From contig OX597828.1 of assembly GCA_951406725.2 (NCBI GenBank), forward strand, positions 9,858,001 through 9,922,000: a DNA stretch of 64,000 bases. The letters run 5' to 3'. This document shows positions 24,911 through 40,343 of this stretch, in pieces (within the stretch, counting starts at the first letter, position 1; every line of letters starts with the position of its first letter). The DNA comes from Octopus vulgaris (lineage: Eukaryota). Position numbers and translations under genes: made by a program. Below the pieces are notes generated by a model that saw only the letters and a program-made list of their open reading frames with translations, made no database searches and had not been told where the DNA came from.

Positions 24911-25415
24911 ATTATATATAGAGGATACTATCACACATAGATGCATCACGCTAGTAGGGACTCTTAAAGTCAAAACTACTAAAATAAATACACACATCAT
25001 ACCGAAACAATTCTCGAAGCAGGTCATTCAAAAACATGCTCCGTTGGATACGATAGCTGCTCGCTTGGTATGTCGTTTTTGTTTATTCATTATATATCAT
25101 GAATTATGCTTGCACTGAAGAGTAAAGAGTGCATAATACTGTACCGATTACGAAATCACAGTGTGATATGCGGCTAAATTCTGTTTTTAAATGACCTGCT
25201 TCGAGAATTGTTTCGGCACGATGTGTTTATTTCTTTTAGTAGTTTTGACTCTAGGAGTCCCTCCTAGCGTGAGGCATCTATGTGTAATAGTGTCCTCTAT
25301 ATAATATAAATAAATAAATTTAAAAGAAAACAATTCATGGATGTTTTTCTCTTATGAGGTTTTTCACGCTAACTACTTGATAAATTCTTATAAAGATTTT
25401 ATCCTATTTTTAAAC
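24911..25415 (+). mobile_element. Hammerhead element family H2 with 5' inverted arm
   Basis: 24911-25036 is the inverted repeat of ~25182-25305; body homologous to 39838-40343; flanked by (TA)n on both sides. Confidence 0.85.
25110..25173 (+). ncRNA. Type-I hammerhead ribozyme (family H2), intact core
   Basis: ttgca-CTGAAGA-gtaa...ttac-GAAA-tcac agt gtga-TA-tgcgg; AUA triplet; stem I has 3 Watson-Crick plus 2 wobble pairs. Confidence 0.8.
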
Positions 25416-25757
25416 TGTATATATATATATATATATATATATATATATATATATATATATATATATATATATATATATATATATATATATATATATATAT
25501 ATATATATATATATATATATATAAACATTATTATGGGGTATGTAAACTATCTTCAAATTCCATCCTGAAGGTAGGTCTAATTTTTTAAATGTTCATTGCA
25601 TTGCACGTGTGTGTATTTATCGTAATGTTGGTGGTTTTTGAAGCTTTCGCTTTCATTTTGGGCAAGCGGATTTTTTTACCATCCTTTTATTCAAATATGG
25701 ATATATATATATATATATATATATATATATATATATATATATATATATATAAATATA

Positions 25758-26560
25758 AGTAACAATAAAGGGTGAAATTAATTAATTTGGAATAATTATT
25801 AATTACACCAAGTAGATTTCGGCATGTAAAAGCCTCATTCGAGGAAAATTTAAGTAATACTAAGCAATTAAGGGTTTAACAACGAATTGCCTCACCACAC
25901 ACCGAATTTAGAAATAGCAGTCAAAGGGTTATAGCTATTTTTTCTACTAAAAGGGAGATCTCAGTAAAAATACAGCACTTGAATGGCAAACACAGACAGG
26001 TAAGAGAGAATGAAATGACGGCAATCTATCATACAATTTTAAGTCACCTACGGACGTACGTTTCGAAATCAAGTTTTAGGAAAGCATAAGAATTAGATAA
26101 TTCTACCTTACCCAAACTTCTTTTCTCATCAGCGTAGGATACTACAATTATGAATAATTGTATATTAAATTTTGAGATACTAGAAGGCATCGTCTCAACT
26201 CAGTGTCAGAGCGAGCCAAAGCATTACCAGTACCACGAAATTCAAAGTGTGAATGAAAGTTTGTGTCACCAGCCCCTTTCCACCCGCGTGTAGCCAAGAC
26301 AAGATGCTGTGGTCATTTACTGGGATAAAATATGGTTATCAGTAACAATAAAGGGTGAAATTAATTAATTTGGAATAATTATTAATTACACCAAGTATTT
26401 CATTCTCTCTTACCTGTCTGTGTTTGCCATTCAAGTGCTGTATTTTTACTGAGATCTCCCTTTTAGTAGAAAGAATAGCTATAACACTTTGACTGCTATT
26501 TCTAAATTCGGTGTGTGGTGAGGCAATTCGTTGCTAAACCCTTAATTGCTTAGTATTACT
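25758..26560 (-). mobile_element. Hammerhead element family H3: 583-bp monomer with 57-bp direct repeats and 164-bp inverted arm
   Basis: 25758-25814 = 26341-26397 (direct); 25853-26016 is the near-identical rc of 26397-26560; (TA)n on both flanks. Confidence 0.9.
26047..26138 (-). ncRNA. Minimal type-I hammerhead ribozyme (family H3), intact core
   Basis: rc: cctacg-CTGATGA-[long stem II gaaa..aagttt..gaatta tc taattc..aaactt..tttc]-GAAAC-gtac-GTC-cgtagg. Perfect 6-bp stem I and palindromic stem III. Confidence 0.92.
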
Positions 26561-26699
26561 ATATATAAATATATATATATATATATTGTTTCTTTTTTTC
26601 TGAACGGAAAACCCGCTTCTTTCTGTTTGGTGCCAGTAAAATCTCGATAAGAGTGATTCATTGTAGTAGAGATCATGCATTGTAGAAAGGATAATCGCT

Positions 26700-36425: not shown

Positions 36426-38671
36426 CATGTTATAAATATTATTATGGTTGATGTAACAAACATCACTGTTATCAACAGCATCAAAAGTAGTAGGTTTAGT
36501 AGGTCTAGAAGTACTGGTAGTGGTAGTTGTAGCAGTGACAGAAACAGTGGCAGTAGTAGTATTTCCAGCTTGATGAATTCTTGTTTATCGAAACGAAAAA
36601 CTATTAAACTTCAAAATGATTATAGGGAAGAAAATAATAACAATGTTTGACATTTAAATTGACTTCACGTCGAACTAAATAATTCAAAGCCGATATGAAT
36701 CAATCAAAACTGTTGAAAATCCACTGTAGTCTTAATGGCAGTTCATTTTAATACAGGTAGTTCACTTATAATCGAATGACATTCTCATCGAAAGCTACAT
36801 TTTCTGAGATCAGGTAGAGAAAAAAATAGAAAAGAAATGCGCCAAAATGCGCAAAAAATAAAAATGCCTAACGGCAAAACGAAATAATTAAAGGGAAAAA
36901 CAAACTAAAACTGTAGATGCAATTTACATTTTTGGTTTGCATTTGTGTATGCCATTGTTCAAGTTTTATATTTATTGCTGTAGTATATATTTTCTTTTCG
37001 GCTTTCTTATTTCATTAAATATCAAAGAGGCTTATTTATTTATTGTTCATGATTCAATATTTATATATTTTTATTTCGTGTTTTGTTTACGACTTTAGTC
37101 GGGATGTTAATCCTAATTGCATATCTTAACATTTATTCTTTCAGTAATAAAAACCAGTTTCGAATATAATCTTTTAAAATTATAATTTCTTTAAAGCATA
37201 ACAATATGACGGTTAAATGAAGAACAAAAACAAAGCAAAAGAACCGGAGCGCATTTATTTCCGAGCAATAGAAGCTAAATTCCAGCCTTAGTTGACGATA
37301 TTTTGACATCGAAATGAAACATTAATTGAATGGATGTCACAAATAGTTGAAACATAATCATAGTTTTTCGATGTTGAAATGGAATTCTAAATCTTTGAGT
37401 GAGGCAATTATGATAGCTATAATGCGATTCCAATTTCTAGTGTCAAGTATTAGATTTTCAACAAAAGAAACACAGAAAATGTAGAAATGTAACAGAGTAC
37501 AAGTGGTAGACGTCTGACGTATTTGCACTCATACAGACGGTGTGCACCCGAATATGAATCTATAGAATCTCAGATATTGGGAATGCATATTTTACTGACG
37601 ATAACGTTGAGATACACAGTGATGAGTGAAAACAATATACAGAAGTGTGTTCGTGGGCAGCCCTCATCATTTAAGGTTGAAACAATCCAAAGATAACGTC
37701 TGACCTTTAACCAACCAATCAAATTCCAAAGAAATTGTTGTTTGTTTTCCTAGAATTATGAAACAGCTGTCCTTCAAAGGAATCTTGGGGTTGAGTTTTG
37801 TGATCCCATTGTACTTTGTTAACTTATATTATTTTACGTCATTGAAATTAAAAGTCGATAATCTGCGATAAATGAAAGCTATTAATTAGGACAATGAATA
37901 AAAGATCTTCAAACACAATACACCGCTGAAGATGTCCTGCACCAGATGTAACGTCTAGATTTCTACTTTAACTAATTCGGTGTCTGGCGGCGACGGAAAA
38001 CATTCAATAGCATACTGTTTAATACTCATTCACATCTACGCTGGGAGTTCAAATTTTGCTGAAGTCAACAGAGACTTCAGATACCGACTGTTATTTTTTT
38101 TTCGTAAATTTGTGCAATGTGTTCGAATCCTATCTTCGTCTTCCTGTTTGGTGACTTAATCCATCGCTCGGCTTTACACCAGCCCTTAGTAACATGGTTG
38201 TCCTTTACTGATTCATGCTGTTGTAAGCCTTCGGAGTTGGTTTCATGTTGGAGAATACCTTCCTTCCTTTCTTTTATTAGTTTTGGAATCACCATAAAAA
38301 TATCCTAGTAATTCATTACTTTCTGAATGAAACAAAAATTTCCATTAACTTAAAGTTTTCTGCAAAAAGAAGGTAATGCTTATTTATTTGCTCTGTACAG
38401 GTTAATTTTCAGTACTGGGCTCAGATCTGGCATAGTATGAATATGAATCTACATATATGTATACAAACATGTATGTGTGCGTGCGCGAATGTGTATGCGT
38501 GTGCGAATGTGTGTGTGAGTGTCTGTCTGTGTATGCATACACGCAAGGACAAAGAGAGGGGGAAAGAGGGAGTGAAAGAATAAATTATTTGTTTGTGTGT
38601 TGACGTATTTATCGAAAGATTTTGTTTAAATATATCTGTGAAAATATATAGTTTATTTGTATATATGTCAA

Positions 38672-39047
38672 CTAGCAGCTAAGCCCGATTTCACCCGGTC
38701 TGTTTGGATGATGTGGCTGTGATCGTTTTCGGTTAGGCATAATCTATAACTGCTTTTCTCAACCTTATCATTTCGGGTCCCCTGTTTCGACTGGAGCCTA
38801 GAGGTGTATGAAAATTTATATGACCCAACGCTTCAGAAAACAGCTTCAAAGCAATGGTTGTTTTAATGGCAGAAGAAAGAGGGAAATTCCATTTCAAAGA
38901 AAGTTTTAATCGATTTTCTCGGTAAGTATGGGTGCTAGGAAAATAATACAAACCGCATTCCAAACTATGCACCCATCTGCCGTTTGGCTGTGAACCTCAA
39001 GAAAAGAAAGACTACAAAGGTCGCCCATGTCCAATTTATATTATAGA
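38672..39047 (-). mobile_element. Non-autonomous Helitron
   Basis: rc starts A|TCTATAATATAAA and ends ...ccgggtgaaatcgggcttagctg-CTAG|T: 5'-TC, 3'-CTAG, subterminal GC hairpin, A/T target, no TSD. Confidence 0.75.
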
Positions 39048-39837
39048 TATCTATATCTATTTACCTATATATATTAATATGTATATATATATATATATAT
39101 ATATATACATATGTGTGTAAGTGTGTATATATATATACGTATGTATATGTGCGTGTTTGTGTGTATGTATGTTTCATTATTTTGTTTTGTTGTGCACTGA
39201 TAAAAGGTGCAAAGATTCAATTCTATACAGAAGTTGAGTCATTTGAAGAAAATACTAGAATTTCTAAGTACGCATTAGTTGGATAAAGTTACATACTCTT
39301 CTTGGAAATTCATAATCATGGTCTTAGATCTGGATGTCGAATGAAAGAAAATAATTAATAATGTAAATATTAGATAATTAAGGCATAAATGCTGGGAGAG
39401 GTCTGATTGAACATATGCGTATCACATAAGAGGGGACTATCAATTTTAGAACGTTAGGTCTCTCATATTTCGTCAAAATTTCACAAACGAAGAAAGTTAA
39501 ATTTAAACTCATACTCTGTTTGGCTATGAAGAGAAACTAAAACCATTTGCCGTTTTTCAACTGTCCAGTAGTTCATCAGTGAGAGGTTATTCTAGGCCAT
39601 GTTGCCCTTTGGACTGTAGCGATGTATTTTAAAATATTGTTGAAGGCGTATATCAGACGTTAGGAAAGTAAAACTTTGCAGCAGTTGTCCTGCGTTAGTA
39701 TATATGAAAATTTGCTGTTGACGAAAATGTACTGATTAGAACTGTCCATGCACGCAATCTGTTTATCTGCTCACACACATACACGACATGTACGACGCAC
39801 AAAAACAACGCCCAAATCGGCACATACACGCATCTCT

Positions 39838-40343
39838 GCCCTCTATATAATATAAATAAATATTTTCAAGTTGAAAAAATTTACAGATTTTCTCTTACGA
39901 GGTTTTTTTCACGCTAACTACTTGATAATTTCTTATGAAGATTTTATCCTATTTTTAAATTTATATTTTTCACCGGAACAGTTCAATACTGAATTTTTGT
40001 TCCGAGTAAGCACGTTGTTACCGAAATGCAATTCGAAAAGCCCGCCATTTACATAGATGTGTAGGGATGAACAGTCCTATATGCTGCGATGGACACTGCG
40101 GTTGCTCGTCTCGTATGTTGTTTTTGTTCATTCATATATATCTTGAATTCGTTGTACTGAAGAACATAAAATGCAAATACTGCATTGATTGCGAAATCAC
40201 AGGTGATATTAACTAAATTATGTTTTTAAATGACTCGCTTCGAAGATTGCATTCGGTACAATTTGTTTATTTTGGTAGTTTTGACTTTAAAAGTCCCTCC
40301 TAGCGTGCGGCATTTATGTGTAATAGTGCCCTGTATATAATAT
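39838..40343 (+). mobile_element. Hammerhead element family H2, complete ~490-bp monomer with short terminal direct repeats
   Basis: Starts GCCCTCTATATAATATA (39838) and ends GCCCTGTATATAATATA (40328). Hammerhead core at 40151-40213 (CTGAAGA...GAAA tcac ag gtga TA) with damaged stems I and II. Confidence 0.85.

Follow-up and report, generated by a model that had tools for sequence, protein, structure and literature searches.

Penelope-like elements (PLEs) are described as inserting partial tandem copies with inverted arms, a tail at one end and a bias toward (TA)n targets (PMC8557442), and two internal start sites of the reverse transcriptase (RT) are reported to define this tail (PMC11167929). 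Metazoan non-LTR retrozymes are reported to lack long terminal repeats (LTRs), a primer-binding site and a polypurine tract, and a circular RNA (circRNA) has been proposed as their template (PMC7229834; bioRxiv 10.64898/2026.07.22.740005); a circle-template model has been published for PLEs and retrozymes alike (PMC4209133, PMC7229834). Here we describe H2, a dispersed hammerhead repeat with a unit of about 490 nt, two copies of which (A and B) lie in a 64,000-nt stretch of the Octopus vulgaris genome (assembly GCA_951406725.2, contig OX597828.1, positions 9,858,001 to 9,922,000 of the forward strand; hereafter the window). H2 is a new member of the non-LTR retrozyme/non-autonomous Penelope class. 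Its copies have variable 5' ends and two fixed 3' ends, termed E1 and E2, and we consider it highly probable that H2 is a non-autonomous retrozyme and that a Penelope-like RT/GIY-YIG protein inserts it by copying an RNA that is likely circular or, if not, a homogeneous head-to-tail transcript. What H2 adds to the known systems is the strictness with which an E1 end and an E2 end are paired in copies with two opposite arms; the class, the circle model, the one-sided tail and the two RT starts have already been published.

H2 resembles the metazoan non-LTR retrozymes (PMC7229834; bioRxiv 10.64898/2026.07.22.740005) in its non-coding, low-GC tandem unit, its type I hammerhead, its lack of LTRs, its self-paired fold and the presence of PLEs in the same genome. 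The size of its unit is above the 150-450 bp given in one account (PMC7229834) and within the 51-972 bp given in the other (bioRxiv 10.64898/2026.07.22.740005). Metazoan retrozymes are reported to form long arrays, whereas H2 is mostly found as dispersed 0.1-1.7-mers and its circRNA is one that we only infer. The two fixed 3' ends and the paired inverted arms of H2 do not figure in those parts of the two accounts on which we draw.

With the endonuclease-bearing (EN+) PLEs of the Neptune/Naiad type (PMC8557442, PMC3846280), H2 shares 5' truncation, partial tandems, an inverted upstream arm, a tail at one end, the (TA)n bias and a hammerhead within the repeat; unlike these elements, it has no open reading frame (ORF), its tail measures about 115 nt instead of 30-40 nt, and stem III of its hammerhead is longer than in minimal PLE hammerheads. 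A tail at exactly one end, present in 45 of 45 countable H2 loci, is said to occur "often" or "optionally" in the descriptions of these PLEs. In Poseidon PAc of the green anole (PMC11167929), as in H2, two internal RT starts define the tail and the target is AT-rich; both strands are reported to be cut and extended there, and a dimer is predicted. No start-site difference between strands was observed in that study, whereas the opposite arms of an insertion of the non-autonomous H2 always differ. Non-autonomous Chlamys elements such as MRC1 (PMC8557442) are likewise non-coding, insert head-to-tail and target microsatellites. The 3' ends of these elements are generally similar to those of their autonomous partners, whereas no partner homology was found for H2 among 28 PLE loci, and most Chlamys elements are described as free of hammerheads, of which H2 has one per unit. 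The main text of a recent cephalopod repeat annotation (PMC13282606) does not contain the word "ribozyme".

Structure of the two H2 copies in the window

Positions within the H2 unit are given on the scale of copy B (q1-506). The features of the two copies are as follows.

24861..24914, no strand: (TA)n target on the left side of copy A
24915..25036, minus strand: inverted arm of copy A, q384-502, with its 3' end at the fixed site E1, facing the direct arm head-to-head
25037..25418, plus strand: direct arm of copy A, from q244 through the hammerhead and E1 to the fixed 3' end E2
25104..25180, plus strand: type I hammerhead of copy A (CTGAAGA at 25115, GAAA at 25152-25155, predicted cut after 25168)
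25419..25523, no strand: (TA)n target on the right side of copy A
39838..40343, plus strand: copy B, a single, 5'-truncated arm of 1.03 units with its 3' end at E1 and (TA)n next to it
39948..39966, plus strand: E2 inside copy B, the second fixed 3' end of the family, through which copy B reads
40146..40219, plus strand: type I hammerhead of copy B (CTGAAGA at 40157-40163, GAAA at 40193-40196, predicted cut after 40208)
40328..40343, plus strand: E1, the 3' end of copy B
40344..40460, no strand: (TA)n-rich tract 3' of copy B

An earlier note on this DNA had pointed out that one motif, named there the junction, stands at both ends of copy B. This is correct: the 17-nt motif reads gccctctatataatata at 39838 and gccctgtatataatata at 40328, with a spacing of exactly 490 bp. 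This "terminal repeat" exists because the variable 5' end of a 1.03-unit copy falls just upstream of the fixed 3' end. Copy A was likewise rightly said to begin mid-monomer and to run past the hammerhead and the motif: its direct arm corresponds to q244-490 followed by q1-129 of copy B and traverses the E1 motif, with a match of 79% over q244-506 and of 84% over q3-129. This likeness is not due to chance (blastn E values of 3e-57 and 4e-31). The motif is E1, however, and not the AUA cleavage site; the predicted cut (A-U-A) lies some 120 nt farther upstream, at q371. Missed altogether were the inverted arm of copy A (24915-25036), which is 91% identical to 25182-25303, and the Penelope-type architecture. 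A profile search revealed no further H2 copies in the window below an E value of 0.37. Copy B contains no ORF of at least 110 amino acids (aa), one low-complexity frame overlaps copy A, and neither copy carries an ORF for an RT plus GIY-YIG protein.

Fixed 3' ends and the pairing of opposite arms

A first look at the 2.8-Gb genome with copy B produced 3284 candidates, 40 of which received a score. With seven DNA queries, two of them long and the other five about 100 nt in length, 210 loci were collected; the 130 distinct ones comprise 194 arms. This sample leans to relatives of copies A and B because each query gives the best 30 of 40 scored hits. Eighty-nine arms have their 3' end at E1, 88 at E2 (q112-134) and 17 elsewhere, while the 5' ends are spread over the whole unit without a pile-up at a fixed point. 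The proposal that H2 copies are circular permutations of one monomer can thus not be upheld, since 177 of the 194 3' ends lie at just two sites. (TA)n follows directly 3' in 102 of the 130 loci, a count made without a genome background rate, and is found at the left end of 43 of the 58 loci with arms in two orientations, compared with 16 of the 72 that have a single orientation. A single clear target duplication, of 13 bp, is present at L034, which lies outside a microsatellite. Seventy loci consist of one arm (34 ending at E1, 33 at E2, three elsewhere), 55 are head-to-head pairs, and five are complex.

Fixed 3' ends combined with 5' truncation are typical of truncated retroelements. The earlier note named fixed ends and descent from a longer linear element with a simple internal duplication as the case that would refute it; H2 would then be the truncated end of, for instance, an autonomous PLE or a long interspersed nuclear element (LINE). 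Retrozymes have also been reported to match PLE pseudo-LTRs (bioRxiv 10.64898/2026.07.22.740005). The fixed 3' ends are indeed there, but a longer parent with position-specific units was not seen: the arms of the 130 loci run upstream into nothing but additional H2 units (at most 1.7 units, with one case of 2.6), the differences that recur between tandem units have no polarity (same order 46, opposite order 48), and nothing in the 28 PLE loci fetched matches H2. We regard this alternative as largely refuted and improbable.

Among the 55 two-arm head-to-head loci, 45 have two canonical ends and ten have one non-canonical end. All of the 45 combine an arm ending at E1 with one ending at E2 (29 with E1 on the inverted and E2 on the direct arm, 16 the reverse). 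With independent 50:50 ends, such complete mixing has a probability of 2^-45; a query may select the end of one arm, yet not that of the other arm. The count leaves out the five complex loci, one of which (L023) has E2 at both outer ends, yet looks like two insertions with (TA)n between them. In 21 of the 45 mixed pairs neither arm contains the other, and in two the arms are disjoint. Both arms must therefore have needed a template, and simple fold-back copying is excluded.

The latter finding bears directly on the idea that tandem and inverted arms were made at the DNA level, whether through slippage, through copying by fold-back or through a process of the Helitron or satellite kind. The insertions are located in unstable (TA)n, units 1-2 of L019 and units 2-3 of L291 are unusually similar, and a self-priming model has been proposed for inverted PLE ends (PMC3846280). 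The arms that do not contain each other speak against such an origin, however, as do the strict E1/E2 mixing, which is not expected from fold-back, the compensatory changes at the RNA level and the absence of a fixed 5' end. A DNA-level process is contradicted for the inverted arms and very improbable overall; it may explain individual extra units.

Continuity of the template and shared haplotypes

The unit junction is crossed seamlessly by 95 of the 194 arms. In a stop-rate analysis of 143 arms, from which query-forced positions were excluded, 59 arms enter q377 and 54 pass q369, so that the predicted cut site is read through by most; the five stops at q370-376, versus 2.9 expected, are not a significant excess (P = 0.17). 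Eight arms span two hammerheads. Taken together, the read-through of the cut site and the two-hammerhead arms mean that a linear self-cleaved monomer cannot be the usual template. A further excess of stops after exactly one round (6 of 17 E1 arms, 3 of 26 E2 arms) is confounded by the edge of the query, and we make no claim on it. L122 and L145 carry internal deletions or template jumps whose downstream side begins at q372-374, the position of the predicted cut.

Units and arms of one locus share variants. Differences at the lineage level, per 100 columns, number 1.86 between tandem units and 2.66 between inverted arms within a locus, versus 3.46 and 4.10 when the three nearest other loci are compared. 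Rare variants are shared at 0.19 (tandem) and 0.16 (inverted) within a locus and at 0.04 and 0.06 with the nearest loci; the Fisher P values for these comparisons treat columns as independent and are thus overstated. In the youngest subfamily (19 loci), the minor allele is common to both partners in 32 of 74 within-locus and in 220 of 2871 between-locus comparisons. Locus-private changes are present in both tandem units, for example in L028 and L298, and no position-specific variant was found between tandem units; a suspected one at E2 turned out to be locus-wide. To judge from these alignments, the shared haplotypes would fit one monomer copied repeatedly, as on a circle, and would equally fit a young homogeneous multimer, re-use of a template or later gene conversion.

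The circular or multimeric template proposed in the earlier note is thus supported by the continuity across the unit junction and the cut site, which would fit a circle and an uncleaved multimer alike. An insertion by a Penelope protein from an uncleaved linear head-to-tail transcript, or from a monomer re-used by template jumping, differs from our explanation only in that no covalent circle is formed, and the likelihood that we assign to it, clearly below even yet substantial, overlaps with that of our own. In its favor, uncut RNA was the dominant substrate of the anole PLE in vitro (PMC11167929), sublineages with weakened hammerhead cores have spread anyway, and a small number of arms begin, or jump internally, at q372-375 (L020, L196, L200, L194, L028, L122, L145), as the 5' end of a linear RNA would give. 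A linear template is disfavored by the missing 5'-end pile-up and the lack of a significant excess at the cut site, by the absence of position-specific variants, by the locus-private changes in both tandem units, and by the finding that the 72 single-orientation loci share no 5' flanks except for one TA-rich match; moreover, a lineage passed on by linear RNA alone would be expected to become shorter at every truncation. Within the explanation that we prefer, insertion by a Penelope-like protein, a covalent circle is modestly favored over the uncut multimer or template jumping, which take the smaller but considerable remainder.

With respect to transcripts, 24 of 30 bins of L003:1200-2200 are covered by contigs from four presumed RNA runs. 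A 522-nt contig that returns to its own start closes near E2, as would also result from reading through a genomic copy of 1.1 units, and was not used as evidence.

The hammerhead and the fold of the unit

Of 113 segments, drawn from 97 loci, 89 have an intact hammerhead core; the cut triplet is AUA in 77 and AUC in 29. Three base pairs of stem II change on both sides between sublineages (TA/CG, 56/53; AT/GC, 61/46; TA/CG, 90/15), and these switches follow the ladder-like tree of 67 long segments; the counts come from related sequences, and the independent events behind them are few. When natural monomers that run from cut to cut (seven, of 475-504 nt) are folded as circles, all of them fold better than their shuffled versions (z from -2.35 to -3.80; 25 shuffles each). 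In the alignment fold, E1 and E2 are unpaired, and compensatory pairs are present in a hairpin outside the hammerhead. The region q61-120, which lies between E1 and E2, is among the least variable of H2 and is likely a platform for protein binding. In the hammerhead of copy B, the basal pair of stem II is an A.C mismatch and one base is missing after the cut site; this hammerhead is likely impaired.

Candidate mobilizers and a second hammerhead family

The genome contains PLEs with intact ORFs: a search for GIY-YIG domains gave 148 matches, many of them in frames of 781 aa. The GIY-YIG match in these frames scores above the cut-off, the RVT_1 match (E = 5e-6) below it, and a cysteine-rich linker resembles that of the Neptune and Nematis clades as described in PMC8557442. 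The autonomous element encoding this RT plus GIY-YIG protein also targets (TA)n, its two 3' ends are separated by about 35-40 nt, and its inverted loci have mixed ends in four of four cases, counted in loci of mostly 3 kb in which distant arms are missed. Its E2 motif and that of H2 are alike by eye only, and a scan of its terminal repeat revealed no hammerhead. L166-L169 and L171 belong to this young Penelope-like family, with an upstream frame of 330-480 aa and a tail of about 35-40 nt; the upstream frame of L167 has no Pfam match. The 3' regions of L174 and L178 represent another PLE family, in which a motif downstream of the ORF resembles, by eye, a minimal hammerhead with a palindromic stem III.

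Adjoining copy A, at 25754-26560 on the minus strand (core at 26132), lies a member of a second, younger hammerhead retrozyme family, whose unit measures 584 nt and for which a first look gave 2166 candidates; outside the core it is not similar to H2. This family, too, has two 3' ends, about 100 nt apart. In 26 distinct loci out of 30, all eight canonical head-to-head loci have mixed ends, and three more carry an end that is non-canonical. Some of the arms, several in number, contain two or three hammerheads, and the tandem units have common haplotypes, including the locus-private changes in L298.

A model for the insertion of H2

The following sequence of events would account for the structure of H2. 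A locus with two hammerheads would be transcribed, and the RNA may be cut to the monomer and then ligated. The Penelope protein would bind the conserved E1-E2 segment and cut a (TA)n target. One or both of the target 3' ends would then serve as primers at internal sites of the RNA, E1 for one and E2 for the other. Every cDNA would run upstream round the template and stop at random; where both ends were primed, the two cDNA ends would be joined head-to-head.

Several observations weigh against this explanation. The E1-E2 spacing exceeds that published for PLE tails, and the anole PLE did not need cleavage of its RNA in vitro (PMC11167929). The sample is biased to relatives of A and B, the two-hammerhead loci come from long queries, and in the longest arm, that of L019, the extra unit may have been duplicated later. 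The 28 PLE loci taken from the 148 GIY-YIG matches show no similarity to H2 other than H2 copies inserted in them. At its gathering threshold Rfam reports nothing in the window; it scores no hammerhead, and its only matches, in five loci, are chance ones driven by microsatellites. The isolated hammerheads of A and B fold no better than shuffled sequences (z of -0.97 and 0.01). Finally, the A.C mismatch at the stem II base occurs in 19 of 113 segments, copy B included, and a U4C change in 5 of 114 rows, and both sublineages have still spread.

Other repeats and frames in the window

A third hammerhead-like motif ending in (TA)n is present at about 12150-12500 on the minus strand (core at 12330), and a near-identical motif lies at position 5730 of L167. 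A repeat family with tandem units of about 186 nt in varying number occupies 9294-9813, 30105-30341 and 30644-31067. Three copies of a repeat of about 550 bp, 86-95% alike and flanked by (AAT)n or (TAA)n, are found at 44586-45159, 48306-48865 and 62990-63550. The plus strand contains an open frame of 322 aa at 56852-57820, which presumably resembles the C-terminal part of a LINE-type RT protein.

Implications for Penelope-like elements and retrozymes

The strict E1/E2 pairing suggests an asymmetric enzyme dimer. Tentatively, and with chances that we put a little short of even, we propose that Penelope insertion is carried out by an asymmetric RT dimer on one RNA, with one subunit that would always start at E1 and one that would always start at E2, on opposite target strands, and that circular hammerhead retrozymes may have evolved an extended two-start platform of about 100-115 nt to hijack this dimer for rolling reverse transcription. 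The literature searched contains no statement of an obligatory pairing and no tail of about 100 nt; older papers on PLE structure may cover both.

H2 touches on the origin of the pseudo-LTRs, tails and inverted arms of PLEs and on the question whether the circles of animal retrozymes are the template for insertion, and it ties a retrozyme to Penelope through the footprints of insertion and not through co-occurrence. It offers a short template, candidate copies by the thousand and a clear-cut rule (one end at E1, one at E2) that can be tested in vitro. If the dimer proposal is true, the one-tail rule (45/45 in H2, 8/8 in the 584-nt family and 4/4 in the 781-aa element) would be the trace that the dimer leaves in the genome, and a single model would cover tails, pseudo-LTRs and inverted arms.

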